DNA from: Gammaproteobacteria bacterium
GTDB lineage: Bacteria; Pseudomonadota; Gammaproteobacteria; Arenicellales; Poriferihabitantaceae
NCBI GenBank assembly: GCA_009841725.1
Contig: VYGS01000094.1
Coordinates: 3,114 to 67,113 of the forward strand
Reading direction: 5' to 3'
Length of the DNA stretch: 64,000 nucleotides
Shown here: piece by piece, positions 25,546 to 41,515 of the stretch
How the letters are laid out: each line of letters starts with the position of its first letter
Position numbering within the stretch: position 1 is the stretch's first letter
The notes under the pieces: model-generated
What the model was told of the DNA's origin: nothing
Databases searched by the model: none
What the model saw: only the letters and a program-made list of their open reading frames with translations
Program-made: the position numbers and the translations under genes

Positions 25546-27951
25546 CTATTCGCCCGAAGAGTCGAGAATCTCTTCCAGTGCGTGCAGAAATCGCGCATTC
25601 TCCCCGGGGGTGCCGACGGTCACTCGCAGGCATTGCTCCAGCACGGGATCCGACCCGTGCAGATTCTTGACCAGCACACCCCTCTCGAGAAGCTCCCGAT
25701 ACACCCGCTCGGCATTCGATACGCGTATCAGGTGAAAGTTGGTTTCACTCGGAAACACGGTAACGCCATCAACCTTCCGGAGCACTTCGAACTGGGCTTT
25801 CCGCGCCTCGACGATTCGCGCGGCCTGCTCGTCAAGCACGACAGAGTTGTCCAGAATCAGCGAAGCGCTGGCCTGTGTCAGCACATTGATATTGTAGGGG
25901 AAGCGGACTTTCTCGATCTGGCCTGCCCATTCTGCGCTCGCCACTGCCAATCCAAGTCTCAAGCCGGCCAGCCCGTTCTTGCTCAGGGTCCTCAGAAGGA
26001 CCGCATTCGGATACCTGGCAATCTCGCCGAGAAACGATTTGCCGCTGAATGCATGGTACGCCTCGTCAATCACCACCAGACCCCGGGCGGCATCCAGGAT
26101 TTCGCGGATTCCCTGCGAATCAAACGCGTTGCCGGTTGGATTGTTGGGATAGGCGAGAAAGATACAGGCCGGGTCGTTGTGCCTGATGGCCTCGATCATG
26201 GCTTCGGTGTCCAGGGAAAAGCCGACCCCCAGCGGCACTTCCACGAACCGGGTCGACGTGGCAAGGCAGATCTGCCTGTACATGGAGAAAGAAGGCGACG
26301 GCGCCATGATCGTCCGGCCCCGGCCGCCCAGAATCAGAACCAGCATCTGGATCAGTTCATCGGAACCGTTGCCCAGTATCAGGCCGCATGAATCGGGCAG
26401 CCCGATCAACTCGCCCAGGCGACGTTTCAGTTCCCGGCATTGCGGATCCGGGTAACGATTGATCTCGGCCTGCCCAACCGCCTTCACCCATTCCCGTTTC
26501 AGGGAATCCGGGAGCGTGTACGGGTTCTCCATGGCATCAAGCTTGACCATGCCCGCCGGGTCGGGAACCGTGTAAGCGCACATTGAGCGGATACTTTCCG
26601 GGACCCATTGCCGGACAGACTGCCGGGCCCTGTCGTCCGCGGACAACGGGTTTCCGGATTCAGCGCCGGCACGATATGTCGCGGCACGCTCGTGCGCCGT
26701 CAGCCCCTCGCTCCGGGCCATGGTCGCGGCAATCCGGGACAGCTTCCCGGCCCCGGCCGGGGACACCTCGAGAGTGCTGCTTCGTTTCTGGAAATCGTAC
26801 ACGCCGAGCGGTGAACTGAACCTTGCAGTTCCGGATGTCGGCAGCACATGATTCGGTCCCGCGCAGTAATCGCCCAATGCCTCGGCACTGTATTTTCCGA
26901 TGAATATGGCACCGGCATGCCGGATCTCGCCAGCCAGGGAGGACGGGTCCGACACCATCAACTCAAGATGTTCGGGCGCGATGTAATTGGTCACTTCAGC
27001 CGCTTCGGATGTGTTTCCGACCCGAATCAGGGCCCCGTTTCCAGACAATGAAGCCTCGATGATCCTGCGACGCTCCATGCCTGGCAACAATCTCTCGACA
27101 GCGGCCAGAACCGCCTCGCCGACGGCCGGATCGGTCACAATCGCGATGGATTGGGCCAATTCGTCGTGCTCCGCCTGGGCGAACAGGTCCATGGCCACCC
27201 ACTCCGGATCGGCCGTGGAATCCGCGATCACCACCACCTCGGACGGGCCCGCGATCATGTCAATCCCGACCTTCCCGAAAACCATTTTCTTGGCCGCCGC
27301 GACATAGGCATTTCCAGGCCCCACGATCTTGTCGACCGCCGGAACGGTTTCGGTGCCGTAAGCAAGCGCAGCGACCGCCTGGGCACCGCCGACGCTGAAA
27401 ATCCGGTCTACCCCCGCAATCTCGGCCGCGGCAATCACGGCGGGGTTGACCTCGCCATCGGGCATTGGAACGGTCATGATGATCTCCCGCACGCACGCCA
27501 CCTTTGCGGGTATCGCGGTCATCAGAACCGAAGAAGGGTAGGAGGCCGTGCCGCCTGGCACATAGACGCCGACCCGTTCGATGGGCATGATCGATTGCCC
27601 GAGTTCAGTGCCGTCCTCATCACGGCAACTCCACGATTCGAGGCGCTCCTTTTCGTGGAACCATCGTATCCGGTCTGCCGCGGCAACCAGCGCTTCCCTC
27701 AATTCCGGATCCGTCTCGGCAGCGATGCTCCGGATTTTCTCGCACGACAATTCCAGATCCCCGATATCCATGTCCCGCCTGTCCAGTCTGCGGGTCAACT
27801 CCAGCAGGACCTCATCCCCTCCGGATCGCACTTTCGAGACGATGTCGCGCACGACGGCATCCACATTCTCCGCCTCCTTCCCGTCCCGCTTGAGAAGGCT
27901 GTCGAGGCGGCTGTAGAAACCGGGGTCGGCGTAATCAAGGGAAGCCAGCAT
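25546..27951 (-). CDS. hisDC: fused histidinol dehydrogenase (HisD) - histidinol-phosphate aminotransferase (HisC)
   Basis: Single 801-aa frame. The first roughly 435 aa are HisD ([35 protein letters not shown]). A linker ([18 protein letters not shown]) follows. The rest is HisC ([31 protein letters not shown] with the PLP lysine). Confidence 0.9.
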
Positions 27952-27973: not shown

Positions 27974-29269
<1,296 letters not shown>

Positions 29270-29608
29270 TCAGAAACCGGCAGACGTGGAGAGCAGGATA
29301 CGGTCTGAATCAGGTCGATCGGGAGCGGAATCCGGCCGTACAAAATTCAACTTCCGGCCATTTGGGCTTGACGGATGACACATGATTCAGAGCTTGGCGA
29401 TTTACCAAAAAGTGTGAAGATGTATTCTCAACGACCGCGATGGAAAAGTCCACATGCCGATTGATTTTCCGATGGCTGCCAGCCGGTCGGCACGACACAT
29501 CTCGGGGAGATGCCGGAGTCTTGGGCAATACTCCAATTCCGGGTCGGATTGGCCAGCTATCGCGGCAGTCCGAAACGATATCCTGCGCCTGTGAGGCAGG
29601 CGGACCGC

Positions 29609-30472
29609 TCAGTGCACCATGACGGTGATGATGTGGGAGTGGGCAAGCACATGATCCGTGACTCCTCCGAACATGTGATGGCGAATTCTCGAATGGCTGT
29701 ATCCCCCCATGACCAAAAAATCGCTTTCGATCTCATCGGCCATCGCAAGCAACCGCCTGCCAACAGACTGGTTTCCCCGGTCGAGCGTATTGAGCTGGGC
29801 GCCGATTCCGTGGAATGCAAGCTGCTGGCGTACGCGTTCACCTCCGTCCAGCCGGCTTCGGGCAACCGCTACCGTCACCCGATCCATCTGCATCAGCCAG
29901 GGAATCGTCATCGACAGGGCGCGTGACGATTCCAGACTGTCGTTCCAGGCGATCATGGCGTGTCTCGCCCGGTGAGGCCGCCACTGCGATGGCACCAGTA
30001 CGACCGGCTTTCCGGAATACAAAAGAAGCGTATTCACTACGGTTTCCACTCCTCCCATCCGAAGCTGGCCTGCCGCCTTTTCCGGGCGGGCGATCGCGAC
30101 GGTGTCATGATACCGGGAATGGTGGACCAGCAAGTCGTTGACCTGCCCGAATTCGTGCTCGAACGAGATGGTCACGCCATCCTGGCTTGCCGGTTCGGGG
30201 TTCATGGCCAGGCCGTGCTTTCGGGAAAAATCCTCCACGGTTTTTCGGATCGTTTCCGCCTGCCTTGTCTGCAACTGCTTCTCCTCCGAACGGACGTCCT
30301 GTTGCAGGCTGTTCGAAAGGCTGTTGAAGGCGGCTGATTTCATCACGCTCTCGGAGATGTGGACCGTTGCAATATGCGCATCGAACCTCCGGGCCACGAC
30401 CAGGGCCGTCTCCAGCGTCCGGTAACCGGCCTCGCCGCCTTCGAGAGGCACCAGAATGGATTTGATTGCCAT
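29609..30472 (-). CDS. tandem universal stress protein (two UspA domains)
   Basis: 287 aa. MAIKSILVPLEGGE... and a second ILVP-type domain ending GGVTDHVLAHSHIITVMVH (USP ATP-binding-type C-terminus). Confidence 0.8.
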   Translation of the reverse strand: MAIKSILVPLEGGEAGYRTLETALVVARRFDAHIATVHISESVMKSAAFNSLSNSLQQDVRSEEKQLQTRQAETIRKTVEDFSRKHGLAMNPEPASQDGVTISFEHEFGQVNDLLVHHSRYHDTVAIARPEKAAGQLRMGGVETVVNTLLLYSGKPVVLVPSQWRPHRARHAMIAWNDSLESSRALSMTIPWLMQMDRVTVAVARSRLDGGERVRQQLAFHGIGAQLNTLDRGNQSVGRRLLAMADEIESDFLVMGGYSHSRIRHHMFGGVTDHVLAHSHIITVMVH

Positions 30473-30513
30473 CGGATTATCTTCCGGATCGGTTCAATGG
30501 ACAGGTTCCGTCC

Positions 30514-31425
30514 TCACCCGCCCAAGACCTCGCCAACGGCGAGACCGCTGTCGCGGGCATATTGCGAAGCAGGAATCTTGCCGCCGTCCGAGCGCACCCT
30601 CTTGATGCAAATCGCACCGTCTGCGGCCGCCACCGTAATCCCGTCGTCATCGATCCCGAGCACTTCTCCCGGTCGGCCGATCCTGCCCGATCGTTCGCTG
30701 TCGAATATCCTGAGCACGGCATTCCCGTGCATCGTCCAGGCTCCCGGCTGCGGATTGGACGCCCGGATGACATTGTAGACCCGCGCCGCCGACTCGCTCC
30801 AGTCCAGGCGGGCCTGGTCCCTGCCAAACCAGGATTCATAGGATCCTTCATCCAGATTCTGTCCGATCCGGGGTGCCCGGCCGGCCTTGACCAGTTCCAG
30901 AGACTCGATCATGGCGTCGACACCCATCGGAAACAGTTTTTTGAAGTAGACGTCTCCAAGCGTTTCATCCGGGCCGATCGAACAGGTCTTCTGCAGCAGG
31001 ATCGGACCCTCGTCCAGACCGTCGTCCGGCCAGAAAATGGTCAGACCGGTTTCCGTCGCGCCCATGGAAATCGGCCAGTTGATGGACGACGGACCACGAT
31101 GCATGGGCAGGAGCGAGGGATGATACTGGAACGATCCGAGTCTGGGCGCGTTGATCACGGCCTCCGGCACGAACAGCAGAACGTAGGCCATCATGCACAG
31201 GTCGGCTTCGAATGATCGCATCAGATCAAGCGACTCGGGGGTTTTCCACGACGACGGCTGATGGACCGGCAATCCGCGTTCGAGCGCAAGCTCCTTCAGG
31301 GGGTCGACAGGCCGGCCCTCCCTGTCCGGAGCCGTACAGACCGCCACGACATTCTCGTTTCCTTCAAGCAGACGCTCCAGAACCGCGCGGCCGAAAGCCT
31401 GCTGCCCGTGCACCACGATTTTCAT
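30514..31425 (-). CDS. formyltransferase-fold protein resembling the N-terminal hydrolase/transformylase domain of 10-formyl-THF dehydrogenase (Formyl_trans_N + _C)
   Basis: Trimmed to the ATG at 31425 (GGAGACGATGCC upstream). It has MKIVVHGQQAFG, FQYHPSLLPMHRGPSSINW (catalytic His) and IFWPDDGLDEGPILLQK (catalytic Asp). The last string is much closer to my memory of rat FDH Nt-domain (IFWADDGLDTGDLLLQK) than to Fmt. Confidence 0.8.
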   Translation of the reverse strand: MKIVVHGQQAFGRAVLERLLEGNENVVAVCTAPDREGRPVDPLKELALERGLPVHQPSSWKTPESLDLMRSFEADLCMMAYVLLFVPEAVINAPRLGSFQYHPSLLPMHRGPSSINWPISMGATETGLTIFWPDDGLDEGPILLQKTCSIGPDETLGDVYFKKLFPMGVDAMIESLELVKAGRAPRIGQNLDEGSYESWFGRDQARLDWSESAARVYNVIRASNPQPGAWTMHGNAVLRIFDSERSGRIGRPGEVLGIDDDGITVAAADGAICIKRVRSDGGKIPASQYARDSGLAVGEVLGG

Positions 31426-31447
31426 GGCATCGTCTCCAACATGTCCG

Positions 31448-32695
31448 TCAGACCGCTCCGGCTTCGCGCATGCCGGCAATCTGCTGTTCATCGTATCCGA
31501 GCACCTCGCACAGGATTTCGTCCGTGTGCTCGCCGAGCAGGGGCGAGCGCACGACATCAACCGGGGAGTCGGACATCTTGATCGGGCAGCCGACCGTCAG
31601 GTACTGGCCCCGCTCGGGATGATCCACTTCCACGACCGTGCCGGTTTCGCGAAGCGAAGGCTCTTCCGCCAACTCCTTCATCGACAGGATCGGGCCCACC
31701 GGGATATTGAGTGGATTGCAGATGTCCATGATCTCGAACTTCGTCTTGGTCATGGTCCACTGTTCAATGGCCTCAAACACCGTATTCAGCCTCGGGAGGC
31801 GCGCCTGGGGCGTTGCGAAATCGGAATCCTCCTTCCATTCCGGTTTTCCGATCACTTCGCATATCTGTGTCCAGACCGCGGCCTGGGTGATGAAGTAGGT
31901 GTACGCATTGGGATCGCTTTCCCAGCCCCTGCACTTGAGAATCCGGCCTGGCTGGCCGCCTCCGGAGTCGTTGCCGGCCCGCGGAGTCGCCTCCCCAAAC
32001 GGGACGCCCTCCCCGTACTGGGAGTATTCCGTGAGAGGCCCGCGCTCCAGCCGCTGCTGATCGCGCAGCTTGACCCGGCAAAGATTGAGCACGCCGTCCT
32101 GCATGGGAGCCAAAATACGCTGTCCCCGTCCGGATCTCTCCCGCTGGAACAGGGCTGTCACGATGCCAAGGCAAAGATGCAGTCCCGTTCCCGAATCGCC
32201 GATCTGCGCACCGGTAACCAGAGGCGGGCCGTCGCGGAATCCGGTTGTTGACGCCGCGCCTCCGGCGCACTGCGCCACGTTCTCGTAGACCTTGCAGTCC
32301 TCATACGGCCCCGGGCCGAACCCCTTGACGGACGCCATGATCATGCGCGGATTGATTTCCTGCACCCGCTCCCATGGAAAGCCCATGCGGTCCAGGGCGC
32401 CCGGGGCAAAATTCTCGACCAGGACATCGCAAACTTTGATCAGTCGCTCCAGCACCTCCTTTCCGGTCTCGTGCTTGGTGTTGAGCGTCAGGGAGCGCTT
32501 GTTGTGATTGAGCATCGTGAAGTAGAGGGAATCCGCCCCCTCGACATCGACAAGCTGTTTCCGGGTCGCGTCTCCGACACCGGGCCGCTCGACCTTGATC
32601 ACGTCCGCGCCGAACCAGCCCAGCAATTGCGTGCACGTCGGTCCCGACTGCACATGTGTAAAATCAAGAATCTTGATTCCTTCCAGCGCTTTCAT
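31448..32695 (-). CDS. frc: formyl-CoA:oxalate CoA-transferase (class III CoA-transferase)
   Basis: Trimmed to the ATG at 32695 (AAGGAGAAATCA upstream). [71 protein letters not shown] and GGGQPG...KC.GWE closely track Oxalobacter Frc as I remember it. Confidence 0.9.
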
Positions 32696-32728
32696 TGATT
32701 TCTCCTTGAGCATTATTCTTCTCGATCA

Positions 32729-34477
32729 TCATTTGTACATGGTCTGGGCCTTCGTTCCCGGAGCATATTCGTCCGGATCGACCCAGACATTCACCACCGC
32801 ACATTTGCCGGTTTTGGCGATTGCCTCCCGGGCCCGCCGCAATGCCGGCTGGATTTCGCTGGCCTCGTGAACCTCTTCGCCATACCCGCCGATCATTTCG
32901 CCGAACTTGCTGAACGGCACATCGCCGAGCTTGTTTCCGACATTGCCCCGTTCCTCTCCGTACTTCGCAACCTGACCATAGCGAATCTGGTTCATATGCG
33001 AGTTGTTGCCGACGATGGCCAGAAACGGCGCGCCGAAGCGCTGCGAGGTTTCCATGTCGAATGCCGTCATTCCGAATGATCCGTCTCCGAACAGACAGAC
33101 AACCTCCTTGTCGGGATTGGCCAGCTTGGCCGCCATGGAAAAACCGGTGCCGACCCCGAGCGAGCCGAGTGCGCCGGGATCCATCCATTGCCCGGGATTG
33201 CGCGGGCGCACGGCCTGCGCCGAAATGGTCACGATGTCCCCGCCGTCGCCAACGTAGATCGTCTCTTCATCGAGAAATTCGTTGATTTCAAAAGCGAGCC
33301 GATAGGGATGAATCGGATTCTGGTCCGTGGTGAACATCGGCATCAGCTTCTCGAGCTTCACTGCCTCGATCTCCCTCAGATCCTTCATCCATGCCTTGCG
33401 GGCGCTTCGTGCGCCATTGTCGATCCGGCCCGAAGCCGCCTGCTCGACCGCTGCCATGATCGCTCCGGGATCGCCAGCCAGCCCCAGGTGGATATCCCGG
33501 TTCTTCCCGACCGTGGTGTAATTCTGGTCGATCTGTATCAGCTTGAGATCCTTTGAAATCCGCTTCCCGTAGCCCATCCGAAAATCGAAGGGCGTCCCGA
33601 CGATCACGATCACGTCGGCATTGGTGAACGCATCCCTGCGGGTGCGGTCGAAATGGTGCGGATCGTCTTGCTTCAGCATGCCCCGGCTGGCGCCGTTCAT
33701 GTAGGCCGGAATATCGAGTGCGCGAACCAGACTGATCGCCTCCTTGTGCCCCTGGCAGGCCCAGACCTGCTGTCCGAACAGGATCGCCGGACGTTCCGCC
33801 TTGACCAGTATGTCGGTCAGCATCTCGATGTCTGCCGGATCGCCGATGGATCGCACCGACGCCCTGTACGACCCGGGCTCGGGAATGACCGCGCTATCGA
33901 CGGGAATTTCGCGATCCAGGATATCACGGGGAATTTCCAGATACGAGGGGCCGTAGGCGCCGGTGAAGCATTCGCGAGCCGCCATCGACACCATGTCCGC
34001 GACACGTTCCGTGGAGAACACTCCGGAAGCGAATTTCGTGATCGGTGTCATCATGTCGACATGGGGAAGATCCTGCAGCGATCCCATCCTGTGCTGCGTC
34101 AGGGAGCTTTGTCCGCCGATATGCAGAATCGGGCTTTCGGAACGGAATGCTGTTGCCACACCGGTCACGGCATTGGTACAGCCCGGACCCGCTGTGGTCA
34201 CCACGCAGCCCAGTTTCCCGGTTTGCCGGGCATAGCCGTCCGCGGCATGGGCGGCCGTCTGCTCATGTCGGACGTCGACGATACGGATTCCCTCATCAAG
34301 GCACCCGTCATAGATGTCGATGATGTGACCGCCGCACAGCGTAAATATTGTGTCGACGCCTTCATTCTTGAGGGCTTTCGCCACCAGATGTCCGCCGGAG
34401 ATCACCGCTCCGCTCTTGTCTTTCCTGGCCAGGGTATCCACCGCCGTATCAGTTGCTCGATTCATGGGATTTCTCAT
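32729..34477 (-). CDS. oxc: thiamine-diphosphate enzyme of the oxalyl-CoA decarboxylase / 2-hydroxyacyl-CoA lyase family
   Basis: It is TPP-dependent (RHEQTAAHAADGYAR, GDGSFGMTAFDMET). The size (about 580 aa) fits, as does its position immediately upstream of frc. The assignment to Oxc rather than another ThDP enzyme is mainly contextual. The start is uncertain (34477, 34465 or TTG 34507). Confidence 0.75.
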   Translation of the reverse strand: MRNPMNRATDTAVDTLARKDKSGAVISGGHLVAKALKNEGVDTIFTLCGGHIIDIYDGCLDEGIRIVDVRHEQTAAHAADGYARQTGKLGCVVTTAGPGCTNAVTGVATAFRSESPILHIGGQSSLTQHRMGSLQDLPHVDMMTPITKFASGVFSTERVADMVSMAARECFTGAYGPSYLEIPRDILDREIPVDSAVIPEPGSYRASVRSIGDPADIEMLTDILVKAERPAILFGQQVWACQGHKEAISLVRALDIPAYMNGASRGMLKQDDPHHFDRTRRDAFTNADVIVIVGTPFDFRMGYGKRISKDLKLIQIDQNYTTVGKNRDIHLGLAGDPGAIMAAVEQAASGRIDNGARSARKAWMKDLREIEAVKLEKLMPMFTTDQNPIHPYRLAFEINEFLDEETIYVGDGGDIVTISAQAVRPRNPGQWMDPGALGSLGVGTGFSMAAKLANPDKEVVCLFGDGSFGMTAFDMETSQRFGAPFLAIVGNNSHMNQIRYGQVAKYGEERGNVGNKLGDVPFSKFGEMIGGYGEEVHEASEIQPALRRAREAIAKTGKCAVVNVWVDPDEYAPGTKAQTMYK

Positions 34478-34493
34478 GTATACGATAGTTGTT

Positions 34494-35198
34494 TCATTCA
34501 ATATCAAGGTTGGTCTTGAGGTGTTCCGCCAAATTCAGGGCGTGCTCCCTGACCAATTGCTCGGCCTTGTCCGCCTCTCTACTCTCCAGAGCCTCGATGA
34601 TTTTCATGTGATCGATAATCGAGTCTGTCGCCCGATTCCCCTCCCTGATCGTCTTGTGGCGAATCACCCGCATGTGGAAGAACAGTCCCTCGCAAATGTC
34701 GATCAGGACGGCAGATTTGGAGATTCGGATCAGGCTTTGATGAAACTCGATGTTCTGTTTCGAGTATTCATCAATGCAGGCCTTGGGCTGCCGGTCTTCG
34801 TCGAACGAGATGAACATGGAGCGCAACTCGCCGATTTCCCGGTCCGACGCGTTTTCCACCACGATTCTCGCAGCCAGCCCTTCAAGCACTGCCCACACCC
34901 GGATCATCTCGATGATCTCCGACATGGTCTTTCTGACCACGAAGGCGCCCCGCCGGGGGATCAGTTTTACGACACCCTCGCGCTCCAGCGACATGATCGC
35001 CTCGCGGACAGGCGTACGACTGATGTTCAGGTCTTTTGCAAGTTTTCGTTCATCCAGCCTGATCGGCTCGTCGCTCGTGTAGATGTCCATATCGGCGATG
35101 GCCGATTTCAGGGCGTCCACCACATGATTCTTCAGTGCGGTACTGGAAGGAATCGGCGCCAGGCGGACGACATTCTTTCTGCTGCTGTCCATGGTCAT
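34494..35198 (-). CDS. GntR-family transcriptional regulator (FadR/FCD subfamily)
   Basis: Has an N-terminal wHTH (ERKLAKDLNISRTPVREAIMSLEREGVVKLIPRRGAFV) and an all-helical FCD-type C-terminal domain. Confidence 0.85.
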   Translation of the reverse strand: MTMDSSRKNVVRLAPIPSSTALKNHVVDALKSAIADMDIYTSDEPIRLDERKLAKDLNISRTPVREAIMSLEREGVVKLIPRRGAFVVRKTMSEIIEMIRVWAVLEGLAARIVVENASDREIGELRSMFISFDEDRQPKACIDEYSKQNIEFHQSLIRISKSAVLIDICEGLFFHMRVIRHKTIREGNRATDSIIDHMKIIEALESREADKAEQLVREHALNLAEHLKTNLDIE

Positions 35199-35219
35199 GT
35201 CTCGATATGCTCCTGGAAG

Positions 35220-36743
35220 CTATTTTTCTCCGCTCGTGGCCTGCGCCCTTCTTCTCTTTATCAACTTCTGGATCGTCGGATAGCTGATCAGGGCAATCGC
35301 CAACAGGATGCAGACCAGCGAAATGGGCCGTTCAATGAATATCGTCATTTCTCCCTGTGAAGCCAGCAACGACTGGCGCAACGAGCGCTCCGCAAGGGGA
35401 CCAAGCACGATCGCGAGTACTGCGGGTGCGACCGGATAATTCAGCTTTCTGAGCAGATAGCCGATAATTCCAAACAGGAACATGAGCCAAACGTCATGCA
35501 TCGTCTGTGTCGGCGCGTAACCGCCCACGACGCACAGGATGTAGATCGTCGGAGCCAGAATCGTGAACGGCAACGTCAGTATCTTGACGAAGACGGGAAT
35601 GAACGCCAGGTTGATAAGAACAGTCGCGAAGTTTGCAATGTACAGGGAGCCGATCAATCCCCAGACAAACTCGGGGTGTTCGGTAAACAACAGGGGTCCC
35701 GGGCGCAAGCCCCAGATGATCATGCCCCCGAGAAGGATCGCCGTGGTCGGAGAGCCCGGAATGCCCAATGTGATCATGGGAAGCATGGAACCGGTCGAGG
35801 CGGCATTGTTTCCGGCTTCGGGAGCGGCAACGCCGGCCACGTTGCCCTTCCCGAAGGTTTCCGGCTTGCTCGAGAAGGTTTTCGCGAGCCCGTAGGACAT
35901 CAGCGATGCGGGTGTGGCACCGGCCGCCGGCAGGGTGCCGACAAAATAGCCGATCACCGAGCCGAGGCTCGTGGTTCCGATATAGCTCTTGATTTCCCTG
36001 AGACTGGCGAGGAAGGACCTGACCGACATTTTCACCTTGTGAACGGTCACTTCACCCCGAGTGGTCTCCAGCGTCCACAGCATTTCCCCGATCCCGTAGA
36101 TTCCGATCGCCAGGACCAGGAAGTTGATGCCGTGCAAAAAGCCGGTGATATCCCCGAATATGAGGCGCGGCTGCCCGGAAATGATGTCGAGTCCAATGGT
36201 CGCGAGCACAAGGCCGATCAGGATGGAGAAGATTGTTTTCGGGATGTCGTCGCCTCCAAGCCCAATGAAGGTCGCGAAAGCGAGAACCATCAGGGCAAAC
36301 TCTTCGGGAGGACCGAATTTCAGCGCAAAGGCCGCAAGCGGTGGCGCAAACAGGGTAAACAGGACGACCGAGATGGTGCCGCCGATGAACGAGGCGATCG
36401 CCGCGGCGATCAGCGCCCGATCCGCCTTGCCCGACTGGGCCAGCGGCCGGCCGTCGAACACGGTTGCCACCGCTGTCGAAGCACCGGGTATACCCAGTGT
36501 TATCGAACTGATGGCACCGCCGTACATCGCGCCGTAATAGATCGCGGCCAGGAAAATTATGGCCGCCGTCGGTGGAACCAGAAAAGTGATCGGAAGGAGA
36601 ATCGCAACCCCGTTCACCGAACCGAGACCCGGCATGGCGCCGACGAGCAGGCCGATGGTGCAGCCGATGATGATCATCATGAAATTCAGCGGCTGCATGG
36701 CTTCCAGAATGCCTGAAGCCAACAGTGTGAATATCGAGTCCAT
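35220..36743 (-). CDS. tctA: tripartite tricarboxylate transporter large permease TctA
   Basis: 507-aa polytopic protein with the TctA pattern (GALPGLGSVNGVAILLPITF, GAMYGGAISSI). Confidence 0.9.
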   Translation of the reverse strand: MDSIFTLLASGILEAMQPLNFMMIIIGCTIGLLVGAMPGLGSVNGVAILLPITFLVPPTAAIIFLAAIYYGAMYGGAISSITLGIPGASTAVATVFDGRPLAQSGKADRALIAAAIASFIGGTISVVLFTLFAPPLAAFALKFGPPEEFALMVLAFATFIGLGGDDIPKTIFSILIGLVLATIGLDIISGQPRLIFGDITGFLHGINFLVLAIGIYGIGEMLWTLETTRGEVTVHKVKMSVRSFLASLREIKSYIGTTSLGSVIGYFVGTLPAAGATPASLMSYGLAKTFSSKPETFGKGNVAGVAAPEAGNNAASTGSMLPMITLGIPGSPTTAILLGGMIIWGLRPGPLLFTEHPEFVWGLIGSLYIANFATVLINLAFIPVFVKILTLPFTILAPTIYILCVVGGYAPTQTMHDVWLMFLFGIIGYLLRKLNYPVAPAVLAIVLGPLAERSLRQSLLASQGEMTIFIERPISLVCILLAIALISYPTIQKLIKRRRAQATSGEK

Positions 36744-36811
36744 GGTCGTTTTACCTTAAGTTCACAAAGGACATTGTCCGGTCCGGTTGGTCTGACTTGC
36801 CGCCGCTCCTT

Positions 36812-37318
36812 TCACGAATACATGAGGTCATAGATCGGGTAGAACATCGGTTCCGTGAACGACTTGGGAAGCGGAATTTTCAACGCCCATTCGAACAGGC
36901 AGAATATGAATACCGGAATCCCGATCATGAGAACAATGGTCAGAGGCCAACTGTGGCGCCCGACAAACTTGAGATAGAAAAGGAGAAACAGGAACAGCGA
37001 GAAATAGATTCCCACGATATGGGTCGCCACCAGCAGAAACAGGATCGAGCCGGCCGAAACGCCGACCACAACCAACCGATCCCGGGTGATGAATATCTCG
37101 AGATTTCGGGATTCCGGAGTGATCTTCCTGAACCACCGGTAAACGGTGATGACGGAAACCAGCAACATGCCCGATGACAGCCAGAAGGGCCATGCCCCGG
37201 GCCCGGGTCCCTTTCCTGCAACCCAGCCGATATTGAGTTCCGCGCTCTTCACCATCAGGCCGATCGAGCACAATGCGCACACGATGGCGGCCACCAGTTC
37301 TGTAGTTCGTACGGTCAC
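36812..37318 (-). CDS. tctB: tripartite tricarboxylate transporter small subunit TctB
   Basis: 168 aa with four TM helices, located between tctC and tctA. Confidence 0.75.
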   Translation of the reverse strand: MTVRTTELVAAIVCALCSIGLMVKSAELNIGWVAGKGPGPGAWPFWLSSGMLLVSVITVYRWFRKITPESRNLEIFITRDRLVVVGVSAGSILFLLVATHIVGIYFSLFLFLLFYLKFVGRHSWPLTIVLMIGIPVFIFCLFEWALKIPLPKSFTEPMFYPIYDLMYS

Positions 37319-37360
37319 GAGGCGAATCCCCGGCCAGGATCAGTGAATGTCATCGATCAG

Positions 37361-37391
37361 GCGTGCGGAGCGGCCGTGCCGCTCCGCACGC
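37361..37391 (-). other. perfect 13-bp GC-rich stem-loop in the tctC-tctB intercistronic spacer
   Basis: GCGTGCGGAGCGG (37361-37373), loop ccgtg, then CCGCTCCGCACGC (37379-37391). All 13 pairs are Watson-Crick by hand pairing. No U-tract follows on either strand. Confidence 0.7.
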
Positions 37392-37422
37392 GATCAAAAT
37401 AAATGAACGCTAGGCGATCCAC

Positions 37423-38424
37423 TTATCCGGTAATCGCGTCAGCACCGACCTCTTGGATCAATTTCTTGTGCTTTTCGATTTCCGTCATGTGATACTGGCC
37501 CAGTTCATCGCCTTTGAGGAACGACTCGCATGCCAATCCGTCTTCCACACAGAAGGTCTGCCATTCCTCGGAATTGAACAGGGTTTCAAACAGGCCGATG
37601 TACCAGGCCTGCGCTTCCGCGGACATCCCCGGAGGCCCGTTAATCGAACGCTGCATGTAGTACTCGATCGGATGGCCCAGTTCCTTGGCGGTCGGAATAT
37701 CGGGGTAAGCCGGCAGCCGATTCGCGGTGAACTGCACCAGCGGCTTGGTGTTGCCCGCACGGTAAAACTCGTTCTGCTCTGCAGGATTGTTGACGGTCGA
37801 ATCGATGTGGTTGCCCACCAGGTTCTTGGCCACCGTGCCACCGCCCGGAAACGGGATATAGGTCACTTCGTAGCCAAAATAGCTTTCCATCATGGCAGTG
37901 AGGATGGAATCTTCCTGGCCGCTTCCGGTACCGCCGACTTTCCATTCCCTGCCGGCAGACTTCACGGCGGCGACATAGCTGTCAAAATCGGTGATGTCTC
38001 CACGATCGGTATTGACCCAGAGCAGGAAGTTGTCCAGCGCCATGCGACCGATGGGGGTAAAGGTGCTGACATCCACGCCGATGTCCTGGATGATGGGAGT
38101 GGTGTAGAAGCTGTTCAGCGTCACCAACACCGTATGGTCGTCACCCGCCTTGTCTTCCATGTACCGAAGGGCTTCCGCGCCGGAGCCGCCCGGCTTGTTG
38201 ATCGGAATAAACGGACGCGGTGACAGGTTTTTCTTCTCGATCAGGCCCTGCAGCAGACGAGCGATCTGATCCGCGCCGCCGCCGGTGCCGGCCATGATGA
38301 TCAACTCTACCGGCTTCTTCGGCGACCATTCCGCAGCAGCGGGTCCGGCCAGTCCGAAAGCCGCCGCCACCGCCACTGCGGACGACAGTACAGTCTTGAC
38401 GAGATTCTTCATTCTGGATTTCAT
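37423..38424 (-). CDS. tctC: tripartite tricarboxylate transporter substrate-binding protein TctC (Bug family)
   Basis: Has a signal peptide (LSSAVAVAAAFGLAGPAAAEW) and the Bug-family core KPVELIIMAGTGGGADQIARL. GGAGG lies 7 nt upstream of the ATG. Confidence 0.9.
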   Translation of the reverse strand: MKSRMKNLVKTVLSSAVAVAAAFGLAGPAAAEWSPKKPVELIIMAGTGGGADQIARLLQGLIEKKNLSPRPFIPINKPGGSGAEALRYMEDKAGDDHTVLVTLNSFYTTPIIQDIGVDVSTFTPIGRMALDNFLLWVNTDRGDITDFDSYVAAVKSAGREWKVGGTGSGQEDSILTAMMESYFGYEVTYIPFPGGGTVAKNLVGNHIDSTVNNPAEQNEFYRAGNTKPLVQFTANRLPAYPDIPTAKELGHPIEYYMQRSINGPPGMSAEAQAWYIGLFETLFNSEEWQTFCVEDGLACESFLKGDELGQYHMTEIEKHKKLIQEVGADAITG

Positions 38425-38529
38425 TGTGAGACCTCCATTGGAGTGTTTAGGAATTGCATGAATAAAATACTCTGATATTCACGACTTTATACATAATATT
38501 CTATTATGAATCATATCAAATCGCCTTAT

Positions 38530-38552
38530 TTTGGTATATGGCATTTGGTATA
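38530..38552. promoter_or_regulatory. 9-bp direct repeat TTTGGTATA x2 (14-bp periodicity) in the AT-rich tctC upstream region; the second copy contains the GntR-like core TGGTATACAA
   Basis: The copies are at 38530-38538 and 38544-38552. TGGTATACAA (38546-38555) fits the generic GntR/FadR operator pattern t.GT-N2-AC.a. The surrounding sequence at about 38440-38580 is conspicuously AT-rich in a GC-rich window. Confidence 0.4.
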
Positions 38553-38746
38553 CAAGATACAGAGAGTATCATAGAACAGAGTACCGGCACCATGTCAACC
38601 CCTTCCCGATCCGCGATTTCCGTCACACGGCCCGGAAGGGACGGCAAGGCGCCGAAACATCGGTCTCGGACTCGTCGGACAGAATCTCGCCGAGAGTCAT
38701 TTCGACAGCCTCGAGGACGGCCGCGGAGGGAATGTGGAGCGCTGGC

Positions 38747-39628
38747 CTACTCGGGAGGATTGAGCAACTCGCCGATCTCAAGACCGATTGAGATGGGCGA
38801 AGCGACGACGTGGACACCGGCCCTGGCCAATGCCTGTTTCTTGTCCTGGGCCGTACCGTAACCGTTTCGGATGATGGCGCTGGCGTGCCCCATGTAGGTG
38901 TTGTCCGGCACGTTTTCACCGACAATGCAGGCAATGACGGGTTTGCCGAAATCCGTCCCCTCCAGATATTCCGCCGCCTGCTCTTCCTCGCTGCCCCCGA
39001 TTTCCCCGATCAGCACCACGGCATCCGTGTCCTGATCCCGGCGAAACAGCTCCAGGCAATCGGCAAATCCAAGCCCGCGCACCGGATCTCCGCCCACGCC
39101 GATGCAGGTTGATTGTCCGAGGCCCGCCCGGGTGGTCTGGTCAATCGCTTCATAGGTCAGGGTACTCGACCGGGAAATGATCCCGATCCGGCCCCTGCGG
39201 AAGATCTCTCCGGGCATGATGCCGATGCGGCACTCTCCCGGCGTAATGATTCCGGGCGCATTCGGGCCAATCAGCCGCGTCCGGCTCCCTTGAAGCGCAC
39301 TCATCACCTCCAGCATGTCCAGCAACGGAATATGCTCGGTGATGCAGACCACGAGGTCGATCTCGGCCTCGATCACCTCGATCATGGCCCGGGCCGCGGA
39401 TTCCTTCGGAACGAATATCACCGATGCGTTTGCGCCGGTTTCGCTCATTGCCTCGGATACGGTATCGAAAACCGGCAGTCCGAGATGCTCGATTCCACCC
39501 TTCCCGGGACGAACTCCCGCAACCATCCGGGTGCCGAAGGAGATCGCTCGCTCCACATAGAAACTCGCTTGATGCCCGGTGATCCCCTGGCACAGCACCT
39601 TGGTGTCGCGATTGACCAGAATCGACAC
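38747..39628 (-). CDS. succinyl-CoA-synthetase-alpha-like subunit (ADP-forming acyl-CoA ligase, CoA-binding/phosphohistidine subunit)
   Basis: 293 aa that align along the full length with E. coli SucD. The phosphohistidine loop is kept (YMGHASAII versus MGHAGAII). Substitutions occur in conserved strings (GPNAPG versus GPNCPG, ITEHIP versus ITEGIP). Confidence 0.85.
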   Translation of the reverse strand: MSILVNRDTKVLCQGITGHQASFYVERAISFGTRMVAGVRPGKGGIEHLGLPVFDTVSEAMSETGANASVIFVPKESAARAMIEVIEAEIDLVVCITEHIPLLDMLEVMSALQGSRTRLIGPNAPGIITPGECRIGIMPGEIFRRGRIGIISRSSTLTYEAIDQTTRAGLGQSTCIGVGGDPVRGLGFADCLELFRRDQDTDAVVLIGEIGGSEEEQAAEYLEGTDFGKPVIACIVGENVPDNTYMGHASAIIRNGYGTAQDKKQALARAGVHVVASPISIGLEIGELLNPPE

Positions 39629-39651
39629 AGCGGCTTCTCCTTATCGGCCTC

Positions 39652-40899
39652 TCAGATGCCGAATGCCGATTTCAGTCTCGCCAACAACGCCGGCGATGAC
39701 TGTCTCCCGTCTTCCCGGGAGGTCGATCCCGCCGCCTCGACAGCGTACTTGGCGGCATCGGCCAGGTTGTTGGCCAGATACAGTTGCGGCATGCTCTCTC
39801 TCAGCCTTCTGTTGGCAAGTTCGGCGTTAGTACCTGCCAGGCGGACCGCCATGGGCATATTGACCCTGCGGCTGCTGTGGATCAGCAAAAGCGCGTCCGA
39901 GACGGTATCGCAACGCATGATCCCTCCGCCGAATACGTTCACGAGCAGGCTTTTCGCCCGGGAAATCGACAGCACAAGCTCAATCGCGCTCAGCACCCGG
40001 TTGACCCTGGAGTCGGGAGGGAGATCCAGAAAATTCGCCGGCTCTCCGCCGCAATACTTGATCGCATCCATCGTTGCCATTGCCAGACCGGCACCGACGG
40101 AGAGGTTGGCAACGTTCCCTTCCAGTTCAAGGTAGTTGAAACCATCCATGCTGGCCAGTCTGCTTGCCTCCGGTGGCCCGTCTTCCCGATCCAGCATCAG
40201 GATGGCTTCCTGGCGAAACAGGGCGTTTCGATCAAAGGTCATCTTCGCATCCAGCGCTAGCCAGGCTCCCCCCGCCAGACCGATCGGATTGATCTCGACC
40301 AGCACCGCATCCTTCTCGAAAAACAGCCCCGCCATTCGCTCCACGACCCCGATCAGGCCCTCAGCGGCCGAATTGTCGATCCCGGTCTTCTCGAGAATGG
40401 AACGCAGCCGTTCCTTGGGAATGCTCCGGTCGGAAAGAAGCTCCAGACGATGGGTTGATCCGGACTCGGCCGTGGGCGAGAGGTAGTCGGCTCCGCCCCG
40501 CTCTCCAAAAAACAGCACGACAGATCCTTGTCTCTCATCCACCGTCAGGCTGACACCAAACTCCTTCTCGATCTCCCTGTACTGCTCGATATAGAGGGAA
40601 CTGACCACCTTGCCGGAGGCAGTGGTATGGTCGGTGACCAGCGGCTTGCCCAGCATCGCCACGGCCAGTTCTCGGACTTCGTCCGGCGAGTGCGCCCTGC
40701 GGATGCCTCCCTGTCCATCGGGCATGCGCCCGGCTTCCCGGCCACCGGCGCGGACCTGCGCCTTGACCATCCATGACTCGCCCTTGAGACGTGCCGCGTT
40801 TTCCCGGGCCTCATCCGGCGTCCGGGCCAGCTTGCCCTCCGGGATCGCAATTCCGCATGCTTTCAGCAGTCTCTTTGCCTGATGTTCCCGAATGTTCAT
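39652..40899 (-). CDS. divergent succinyl-CoA-synthetase-beta-like subunit (ATP-grasp)
   Basis: Trimmed to the ATG at 40899 (MNIREHQAKRLL). It has an ATP-grasp N-terminal half. In the C-terminal half, GGEPANFLDL is followed by PPDS where SucC has the conserved GGGA. An extra C-terminal tail of about 25 aa is present. Confidence 0.8.
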   Translation of the reverse strand: MNIREHQAKRLLKACGIAIPEGKLARTPDEARENAARLKGESWMVKAQVRAGGREAGRMPDGQGGIRRAHSPDEVRELAVAMLGKPLVTDHTTASGKVVSSLYIEQYREIEKEFGVSLTVDERQGSVVLFFGERGGADYLSPTAESGSTHRLELLSDRSIPKERLRSILEKTGIDNSAAEGLIGVVERMAGLFFEKDAVLVEINPIGLAGGAWLALDAKMTFDRNALFRQEAILMLDREDGPPEASRLASMDGFNYLELEGNVANLSVGAGLAMATMDAIKYCGGEPANFLDLPPDSRVNRVLSAIELVLSISRAKSLLVNVFGGGIMRCDTVSDALLLIHSSRRVNMPMAVRLAGTNAELANRRLRESMPQLYLANNLADAAKYAVEAAGSTSREDGRQSSPALLARLKSAFGI

Positions 40900-41158
40900 G
40901 TTGACGAAAGACCGGATGGACACGGGTGGATAGCATGAAACGCAGAAGCCCGTGTGTCATGTCGATTCTGCCATATCGCCAAAGTGCGTGCATCGCTTTT
41001 CTTCAAGGGCCCGATGCCGTATAGAGCCATATCCCTCTCCGAAGTTTGACCGACAGTGGTGGTCCAGGCAGGATGGCGTGAATCTTCGTTGCAACTGCTC
41101 AGCAACGTCTCAGACCGGCCTCGTGCCTGTTCCGCAATGCTGTCTTCAGGTTGAGGGG

Positions 41159-41167
41159 GGATCAGTC
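41159..41167. repeat. 9-bp direct repeat copy A (GGATCAGTC) spanning the hicB stop codon
   Basis: Identical 9-mer to 41697-41705. Both copies contain the stop codon (TCA on the plus strand) of a minus-strand gene ending in Asp-stop. Confidence 0.6.
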
Positions 41168-41515
41168 TTGGACCGCATGCTCATTACGCTCGAGATAGTG
41201 CCGCAATGCATCGCTGACAATCGCGTTGAGGCTGACTCCCCGGCGTCTGGAGTAGAGCATCGCACGACGGTGCAGGTCGTGACCAGGACGTACGTTGAAG
41301 CTGCCTTTCAGTGGCATATCAGGCTTGCGGCTTTCAGTTGCACAAAGCCGAAGATAATCGTCCACAGCCTCGTGAAATGCCGTCTTGAGGCTTCTGACAT
41401 TTTCGCCCTCATAGAGCACCCGGTCACGAATGAACTCAAGCCGGCCATGCAGCAGTTCGTCGTCATTGTACTCGACCGAACCGAGATAGCCTTTGTATTC
41501 GAGCATCGTACGCAT
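41162..41515 (-). CDS. hicB: HicB-family antitoxin (HicB_lk N-domain + ribbon-helix-helix C-terminus)
   Basis: MLEYKGYLGSVEYNDDELLHGRLEFIRDRVLYEGENVRSLKTAFHEAVDDYL is the typical HicB-like fold signature. The C-terminal KGSFNVRPGHDLHRRAMLYSRRRGVSLNAIVSDALRHYL is an RHH DNA-binding motif. Confidence 0.8.
   Translation of the reverse strand: MRTMLEYKGYLGSVEYNDDELLHGRLEFIRDRVLYEGENVRSLKTAFHEAVDDYLRLCATESRKPDMPLKGSFNVRPGHDLHRRAMLYSRRRGVSLNAIVSDALRHYLERNEHAVQD

Follow-up and report, generated by a model that had tools for sequence, protein, structure and literature searches.

In a 64,000-nucleotide stretch of DNA (hereafter, the window) from a gammaproteobacterium of the order Arenicellales, family Poriferihabitantaceae (assembly GCA_009841725.1, contig VYGS01000094.1, positions 3,114 to 67,113), the gene frc for formyl-CoA transferase is followed on the minus strand by a gene for a formyltransferase, which we refer to as FT. 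The tie between FT and formyl-CoA metabolism is very strong. Taking the active site of FT and its partners together, we consider it fairly probable that FT acts as a reversible 10-formyl-tetrahydrofolate (10-formyl-THF):CoA formyltransferase (10-formyl-THF + CoA-SH <-> formyl-CoA + THF). Family placement, residues, synteny, co-occurrence and fusions were computed; the CoA acceptor, the reversibility and the direction of the reaction are what we infer.

Linkage of FT to Frc and FTHFS

The neighbourhood of FT was scanned for synteny in species-representative genomes, which gave 80 loci with 67-77% identity to FT. These belonged to metagenome-assembled genomes (MAGs) of Arenicellales and other gammaproteobacteria, many of them sponge-associated, as well as to Hyphomicrobiales, Rhodobacterales and others. 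The gene order was near-constant, also in Breoghania, and may be written as (SucCD-like)-TctCBA-GntR-TPP-Frc-FT-FTHFS-Usp, where TPP stands for a thiamine pyrophosphate enzyme, FTHFS for formate-THF ligase and Usp for a universal stress protein. Frc was encoded directly upstream of FT in approximately 70 of the 80 loci, the remainder being mostly short contigs or rearranged loci, and FTHFS directly downstream of FT in most loci long enough to reveal it. The GntR/FCD regulator occupied the same position in most of the related loci. A relative with 55% identity (L089) was flanked by Frc and FTHFS, too; relatives with 44-47% identity (P0208 and P0224) had unrelated neighbourhoods. Judging from these sequences, the assignment made for FT should not be extended below approximately 50% identity.

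In the window, Usp comes directly after FT, whereas FTHFS stands between the two in relatives. The FTHFS gene of the host genome has been relocated to the end of contig C144 (10000-18565; 2142-8417 in L092), 150 nt from the contig end, and directly follows NAD-formate-dehydrogenase-like genes (Nuo51-type and molybdopterin subunits) there. The encoded protein is 79% identical to the operon-linked copies of other genomes.

Co-occurrence was assessed in an even sample of 200 genomes from the class of the window (one per family) and in a second class, where 301 genomes were taken around a Hyphomicrobium genome. Within the window's class, FT (called at E <= 1e-60) and Frc (above its model cut-off) occurred in an identical set of 4 genomes. 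In the second class, 21 genomes carried both, 2 only FT, 5 only Frc and 273 neither (Fisher p = 1.5e-25, uncorrected for relatedness); in one of the two FT-only genomes, FT is fragmentary and lies on a tiny contig, and the other has a sub-threshold Frc-like gene. When the samples were pooled, Frc was found in 25 of 27 FT carriers and FT in 25 of 30 Frc genomes, so that about four fifths of the Frc-bearing genomes sampled in these two proteobacterial classes carry FT. FTHFS was present in 22 of 23 FT genomes. The linkage to frc supposed in the first-pass annotation of the window thus holds at the level of both loci and genomes.

In 5 genomes, FT lies away from frc, and all of them have a bona fide Frc elsewhere. 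We also considered the seemingly Frc-less loci (TPP-FT in L025, GntR-FT in Paracoccaceae, and others) as signs of a Frc-independent role and dismissed them, because a bona fide Frc is encoded elsewhere in the genome. The first of these loci (L025, 6228-11942), from a Granulosicoccaceae MAG, has a TPP enzyme of the window's type (type A) and then FT, with no frc between them and with AceK-like and DDAH-like flanks.

Fusions of FT with its partners

At least 35 clusters of proteins of approximately 880 aa (among P0121-P0158) combine a full FT (residues 1-293) with a complete FTHFS (residues 329-883), at 60-69% identity to the query. At two loci where their genes were located (L093, 9001-11649, and L094, 9001-11637), the fusion takes the slot of FT and FTHFS after GntR-TPP-Frc. 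One such fusion was found on more than 24 contigs and, therefore, is not an assembly accident. A fusion of another kind, P0165 from a EukProt transcriptome, is 920 aa long and joins an FT (residues 12-291) to a full TPP enzyme (residues 368-902), with 49% identity to the query. The transcript may stem from either a contaminant or a true eukaryotic gene. Apparent Frc-FT fusions (P0159, P0162, P0175, P0181 and P0199) contain only the last third of Frc, look like artefacts of gene calling or frameshifts and were left uncounted. Overall, all conserved neighbours and fusion partners of FT are enzymes of either formyl-CoA (Frc and the Oxc- or HACL-like TPP enzymes) or 10-formyl-THF (FTHFS).

FT is not a methionyl-tRNA formyltransferase

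Homologues of FT are named 'methionyl-tRNA formyltransferase' in their public source records, which would make FT a second Fmt of its host. The two proteins do share the same two-domain fold, and the Fmt equivalog model TIGR00460 is the top NCBIfam match of FT; the score, however, is 150.1 bits, below the cut-off of 201.5. The host genome (2.6 Mb, 94% complete) contains three Formyl_trans_N genes, namely, a PurN-sized one, FT and a true fmt on contig C48, the product of which reaches 266.2 bits on the same model.

The residues tell the same story. FT was aligned with its family (156 members in all), 9 animal FDH and 22 Fmt sequences. The site two residues N-terminal to the catalytic His is occupied by Asn in 45 of the 46 rows of the Fmt clade (ArnA included), in PurN and in PurU, the E. 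coli PurU reading NIH at this place. The same site has an invariant Gln in the 156 family members (Q100 in FT, replacing Asn108 of mature E. coli Fmt), Cys or Ile in FDH and Val in HypX. The tRNA-contact loop comprises 15 residues in FT and 14 in FDH versus 20 in Fmt, so that the loop of FT is 5 residues shorter, and it is devoid of the GRGKK motif. Finally, the median isoelectric point of the C-terminal domain is 4.9 in the FT family versus 9.5 in Fmt.

Two phylogenetic trees, both computed under LG+C20, were available for comparison: a quick one of 117 rows and a careful one of 60 rows. The Fmt clade, including E. coli Fmt and the host's own Fmt, received a support of 99 in the quick tree, and its core 93/96 in the careful one; FT lies outside of it. 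Moreover, FT is part of a catabolic operon and is not found beside def. Thus, with a score below the cut-off, Gln in place of Asn, no basic tRNA loop, an acidic C-terminal domain, a position in a non-Fmt clade and a separate fmt in the genome, FT is not Fmt; a second Fmt is exceedingly improbable here, and these sequence features effectively exclude it. The first-pass annotation had named clustering with Fmt, as the only fmt of the genome, as the outcome that would speak against its reading; the tree and the fmt on contig C48 reveal the opposite on both counts.

Relationship to the N-terminal domain of FDH

Among solved structures (phmmer against PDB), FT scored highest with the N-terminal domain of 10-formyl-THF dehydrogenase (FDH-Nt; 197 bits, E 3.6e-57), followed by Fmt (154 bits), ArnA (104), HypX (48) and PurN (39); the top matches were the zebrafish, rat and human FDH domains with 197-191 bits. 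By score, therefore, FT is closer to FDH-Nt than to Fmt or PurN, just as the first-pass annotation had suggested. Structures of zebrafish FDH single out Phe89, His106, Arg114, Asp142 and Tyr200 (PMC4388273). These residues correspond to F85, H102, R110, D138 and Y196 in FT, each of which is at least 96% conserved across the FT family, and approximately 18 more positions of the alignment are invariant in the FT family and FDH and different in Fmt.

In the careful tree, FT and its relatives, including the FTHFS-fused forms, composed a clade with 100/99 support, nested in a wider clade together with the TPP-fused protein (98/95). Animal FDH-Nt sequences (100/100) joined P0224 and P0261, a pair of stand-alone proteins from bacteria (100/98), and the non-Fmt lineages, the FT family and FDH among them, formed one group with weak support (92/67). 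A direct sister relationship between FT and animal FDH-Nt, which we considered, is unsupported by this topology. Hence, the description of FT as a stand-alone homolog of FDH-Nt in the first-pass annotation is supported insofar as FT is a relative of FDH-Nt rather than an Fmt or a PurN, and goes too far if taken to mean the direct sister in the tree. The rows closest to animal FDH-Nt, P0224 and P0261 (L090, 6489-7945), are encoded by stand-alone formyltransferase-like genes of 314 aa; the gene of P0224 (L090/L091) adjoins a gene for a PNPOx-like flavoprotein, and frc is not nearby.

Proposed activity and its alternatives

In whole FDH, the N-terminal domain hands the formyl group of 10-formyl-THF to a 4'-phosphopantetheine thiol (PMC4388273; PMC6802093). 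By analogy with this carrier arm of the animal enzyme, the pantetheine thiol of CoA would attack the N10-formyl group in FT, with the His102/Asp138 pair on an FDH-type fold carrying out the transfer. We propose CoA as the acceptor because the site is of the FDH type, the Asn of amine formylation is missing and the partners make or use formyl-CoA or 10-formyl-THF. FDH and HypX, both of which are devoid of the catalytic Asn, formylate a pantetheine thiol, as proposed in the case of HypX. FT might, thus, join the cycle of Frc and the TPP enzyme, which runs on catalytic and chemically labile formyl-CoA, to the one-carbon (C1) pool of folate and to FTHFS. Such a link between formyl-CoA and the folate C1 pool had been put forward in the first-pass annotation alongside a release of formate from 10-formyl-THF; the former is the best reading given the adjacency and the fusions with FTHFS, while the latter fits poorly with the full-length fusion to FTHFS, which makes 10-formyl-THF at the expense of ATP.

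Several points weigh against a 10-formyl-THF:CoA formyltransferase. Isolated FDH-Nt acts as a hydrolase in vitro. The AlphaFold2 model of FT (pLDDT 96.9) matches the fold of FDH-Nt and that of Fmt alike (TM 0.87-0.94, Foldseek), and FT is not the direct sister of the animal domain, as stated above. The FT protein is acidic overall, and we identified no CoA-binding site in it. The N-domain of HypX, one of the precedents, is distant, with 26% identity and the 48 bits given above. We found no biochemical or genetic data on any member of the FT family in the literature, and the direction of the flux is not readable from the sequence. To these, the distribution of PurU has to be added, which bears on the first of the two alternatives below.

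It is tempting to ask whether FT might simply be a 10-formyl-THF hydrolase, similar to PurU or to the FDH-Nt 'hydrolase', which would free formate and regenerate THF amid the formate derived from oxalate. The closest solved relatives of FT are precisely these FDH 'hydrolase' domains, and their key residues are all retained. In addition, the three Formyl_trans_N genes of the host include no PurU (the genome yielded no match to TIGR00655, with its cut-off of 286 bits, and FT contains no ACT domain according to Pfam), and none of the 28 FT genomes yielded a PurU, versus 65 of 301 in the class sample (p = 0.006, uncorrected for relatedness). However, the base rate of PurU, 22% in the class sample, is 15% among FTHFS-positive genomes, and within these, the contrast weakens to 0 of 22 versus 18 of 117 (p = 0.076); we therefore take the idea of FT as a replacement of PurU as a weak hint at most. 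PurU also keeps the catalytic Asn that the FT family has replaced. A hydrolase adjacent or fused in full length to FTHFS would create an ATP-wasting futile cycle, and the near-obligate partner of FT is Frc rather than folate genes. Lastly, the hydrolysis by FDH-Nt in vitro needs an added thiol as the first formyl acceptor: given millimolar beta-mercaptoethanol, Nt-FDH alone 'hydrolyses', with the thiol attacking the formyl group first (PMC4388273; PMC6802093). Overall, we regard a hydrolase as improbable.

Another possibility is that FT uses a different acceptor (an amine, a carrier protein or a small non-CoA thiol, for example) or that it is a folate-independent formyl-CoA hydrolase. Here, one has to bear in mind that we named CoA from context alone and that the relatives with 44-47% identity (P0208 and P0224), being encoded in unrelated contexts, imply several functions in the wider group. 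A gene for a carrier protein was not seen, but small genes could escape detection. Against a different acceptor, it can be said that all of the conserved neighbours and fusion partners handle formyl-CoA or 10-formyl-THF, that the folate-holding residues of FDH are retained in FT and that the Asn of amine formylation is missing. This group of alternatives seems unlikely to us, and we retain the 10-formyl-THF:CoA formyltransferase.

This enzyme could work in either of two directions. In direction (a), formyl-CoA would be made from 10-formyl-THF, which FTHFS would refill from formate and ATP, and the autocatalytic cycle of Frc and the TPP enzyme would thereby be started or topped up. In direction (b), formyl-CoA would be drained into 10-formyl-THF, either for C1 assimilation or for ATP via reverse FTHFS. 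We slightly favour direction (a), since the cycle needs a first thioester and 10-formyl-THF is always present, and since all three precedent enzymes run towards formyl-CoA or a formyl thioester. A primer is also consistent with the distribution of FT, which occurs only where Frc does, while Frc is possible without FT. Going one step further, we tentatively suggest, at somewhat less than even chances, that FT and FTHFS make up a two-step, ADP-forming 'formyl-CoA synthetase' (formate + ATP + CoA -> formyl-CoA, with 10-formyl-THF as the intermediate) that ignites and replenishes the cycle of Frc and oxalyl-CoA decarboxylase. FTHFS works near equilibrium, with ATP formation at about +5 kJ/mol (PMC8085960), and the reversed FT-FTHFS pair would recover ATP from the formyl-CoA thioester.

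The TPP enzyme in the Oxc slot

The upstream neighbour of frc in the window goes by the name of oxc, a label that we cannot uphold. The enzyme reached 224 bits on the NCBIfam model of Oxc, which has a cut-off of 557, and its best NCBIfam match was PRK05858 (431 versus a cut-off of 587). Among PDB entries, it scored 264-240 bits with 2-hydroxyacyl-CoA lyases and synthases (HACL/HACS) and 172-146 bits with Oxc. With the canonical Oxc (TIGR03254, 1016 bits) that Breoghania encodes in the same slot, it shares 24.6% identity, and no canonical Oxc was found in the host genome. Translation of the window's enzyme probably begins downstream of the TTG given as its start.

In the 80 loci, this position was taken by either an enzyme of the window's type (84-90% identical to that of the window) or a canonical Oxc. 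Frc (approximately 77-90%) and, in close operons, TctC (approximately 75-84% identical to that of the window) were equally conserved beside either type. Such a pattern suggests that the TPP enzyme of the window may be a non-orthologous replacement of Oxc acting on the same substrate.

Gene layout of the window

FT belongs to a run of minus-strand genes encoding, in this order, SucC-like, SucD-like, TctC, TctB, TctA, GntR/FCD, the TPP enzyme, Frc, FT and Usp (Table 1). The first-pass annotation had placed FT correctly, leaving its strand unstated; the frame is on the minus strand and runs uninterrupted from an ATG at 31425 to a TGA stop. The other details that it had read from the letters are borne out. 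The upstream open reading frame ends at 31448, which leaves the 22 nt reported, and its product is indeed Frc (TIGR03253, 704 bits versus a cut-off of 504). Both formyltransferase motifs with the catalytic His and Asp, YHPSLLPMHRGPSSINW (residues 101-117) and IFWPDDGLDEGPILLQK (residues 130-146), are present in the translation. Pfam recognised Formyl_trans_N in residues 1-162 (E 1.3e-28) and, as the expected C-terminal tail, Formyl_trans_C in residues 203-287 (E 3.4e-18). FT is a real gene, as judged by hundreds of homologues of 302-304 aa with 67-79% identity.

Table 1. Features of the window in the neighbourhood of FT, with positions given in window coordinates
Feature	Position	Strand	Basis
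FT (P0001), FDH-Nt-like formyltransferase, 303 aa	30514..31425	minus	translation, Pfam PF00551 + PF02911
frc-FT spacer, 22 nt, GGAG Shine-Dalgarno-like site 8 nt 5' of ATG	31426..31447	minus	sequence
frc, formyl-CoA transferase, 421 aa	31448..32713	minus	TIGR03253 704 bits (cut-off 504), PF02515
TPP enzyme in the 'oxc' slot, HACL/HACS-like (type A)	32729..34507	minus	NCBIfam + PDB scores
GntR/FCD regulator	34494..35198	minus	PF00392 + PF07729
TctA, tripartite tricarboxylate-type transporter, large membrane subunit	35220..36743	minus	PF01970, E 1e-147
TctB, small membrane subunit	36812..37318	minus	PF07331
TctC, periplasmic binding protein	37423..38424	minus	PF03401
SucD-like, ADP-forming CoA ligase pair	38762-39628	minus	Pfam CoA_binding/Ligase_CoA
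SucC-like, ADP-forming CoA ligase pair	39715-40899	minus	Pfam ATP-grasp_2
Tandem universal stress protein (Usp) gene, 287 aa, 41 nt after FT	29609..30472	minus	PF00582

Judging by the spacing, frc and FT are likely co-transcribed. A scan for promoters and terminators over positions 29000-41500 revealed no terminator-like or promoter-like site in the gap between frc and FT; the counts of such sites over this region did not exceed those of shuffled sequences, and the scan is otherwise uninformative. The public runs that contain the DNA of the window are sponge and coral metagenome DNA, with no RNA runs among them.

The SucCD-like pair (38762-40899) is a possible member of the operon system of FT and might provide the pathway with a CoA thioester. 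It lies beside the operon in many related loci and is divergent, the identity of its beta subunit to that of Breoghania being only 33%. At the other end, Usp is the conserved last gene of the operon in many genomes, typically after FTHFS (L005, L011, L012, L017, L026, L036, L043, L068, L069, L072, L076 and L084). Further along the minus strand, a single frame of 801 aa (25546-27951) combines a complete histidinol dehydrogenase (HisD) with a complete histidinol-phosphate aminotransferase (HisC).

Novelty and implications

In the full-text literature, with most subscription journals outside its coverage, we found no description of an FT gene in operons for oxalate or formyl-CoA. The undescribed part is a large, highly conserved family that has been misannotated as Fmt, is near-standard in Frc-based catabolism and in many bacteria is fused to FTHFS; the chemistry itself is precedented. 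The first-pass annotation had placed such a link outside the textbook oxalate pathway; precedents for its chemistry are provided by LctF and, by proposal, the HypX N-domain.

If FT acts as we propose, the catabolism of oxalate and formyl-CoA in many marine, soil and symbiont Proteobacteria would be directly coupled to the C1 pool of folate, and the textbook pathway, as drawn from Oxalobacter and E. coli, would be missing a near-standard component. The question of how a cycle running on catalytic, hydrolysis-prone formyl-CoA gets started and is kept filled would then have a candidate answer. The FT-FTHFS pair or fusion would also be a ready means of turning formate into formyl-CoA, paid for by ATP -> ADP; engineers of one-carbon pathways now obtain this conversion from engineered acyl-CoA synthetases (PMC11326285). 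As regards the evolution of FDH, the FT family may place the transfer of formyl to a thiol, which animal FDH carries out on a carrier arm of its own, in a bacterial context. In any case, the family needs an annotation model of its own, which would end the naming as Fmt in the public records that we examined.

Comparison with known systems

FT resembles the N-terminal domain of FDH/ALDH1L1 (PDB 4qpd, 1s3i and 2bw0) over its whole length and in both subdomains, with 33-40% identity, the same fold (TM 0.87-0.89), the His/Asp pair and the Phe, Arg and Tyr residues retained. The catalytic Asn is missing from both, and both have a shorter counterpart of the loop of Fmt. Unlike FDH, FT stands alone, with neither carrier nor aldehyde dehydrogenase domains, the long members of its clade being fused to FTHFS or to a TPP enzyme instead. 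FT is also bacterial and encoded in an frc operon, has Gln where FDH has Cys or Ile, would use free CoA as the acceptor and is separated from FDH in the tree by the absence of a direct sister relationship.

The activity proposed for FT has its clearest precedent in LctF from the lactacystin pathway of Streptomyces lactacystinicus, which converts 10-formyl-THF and CoA to formyl-CoA in vitro, as followed by liquid chromatography-mass spectrometry (PMC11730586). The 2025 paper describes LctF as the first such enzyme and leaves oxalate operons unmentioned (PMC11730586). LctF is likewise described as a stand-alone Fmt-like enzyme. It differs from FT in belonging to a secondary-metabolite cluster of polyketide synthase and non-ribosomal peptide synthetase genes, whereas FT is part of a catabolic operon.

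The N-domain of HypX has been proposed to formylate CoA from 10-formyl-THF (PMC6802093). In common with FT, the HypX/HoxX N-domain (PDB 6j0p and further entries) has the Formyl_trans_N/C fold and the His/Asp pair and is devoid of the catalytic Asn. However, it is fused to an enoyl-CoA-hydratase-like decarbonylase, holds CoA as a prosthetic group and serves the synthesis of the CO ligand of [NiFe] hydrogenase.

Fmt (TIGR00460; PDB 1fmt and 2fmt) shares with FT the two-domain architecture, the length, the SLLP motif and the His/Asp pair. FT is set apart from it by the score below the cut-off, Gln in place of Asn, the shorter tRNA loop, the acidic C-terminal domain and the separate clade.

Finally, YfdE of E. 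coli, an acetyl-CoA:oxalate CoA-transferase, is a primer of the cycle of Frc and Oxc (PMC3720670). As an accessory enzyme that is encoded together with frc and oxc and supplies the first thioester, it is analogous to the role that FT would play in direction (a). The two are unrelated, YfdE having the fold of class III CoA-transferases, and YfdE draws on acetyl-CoA, while FT would draw on the folate pool.

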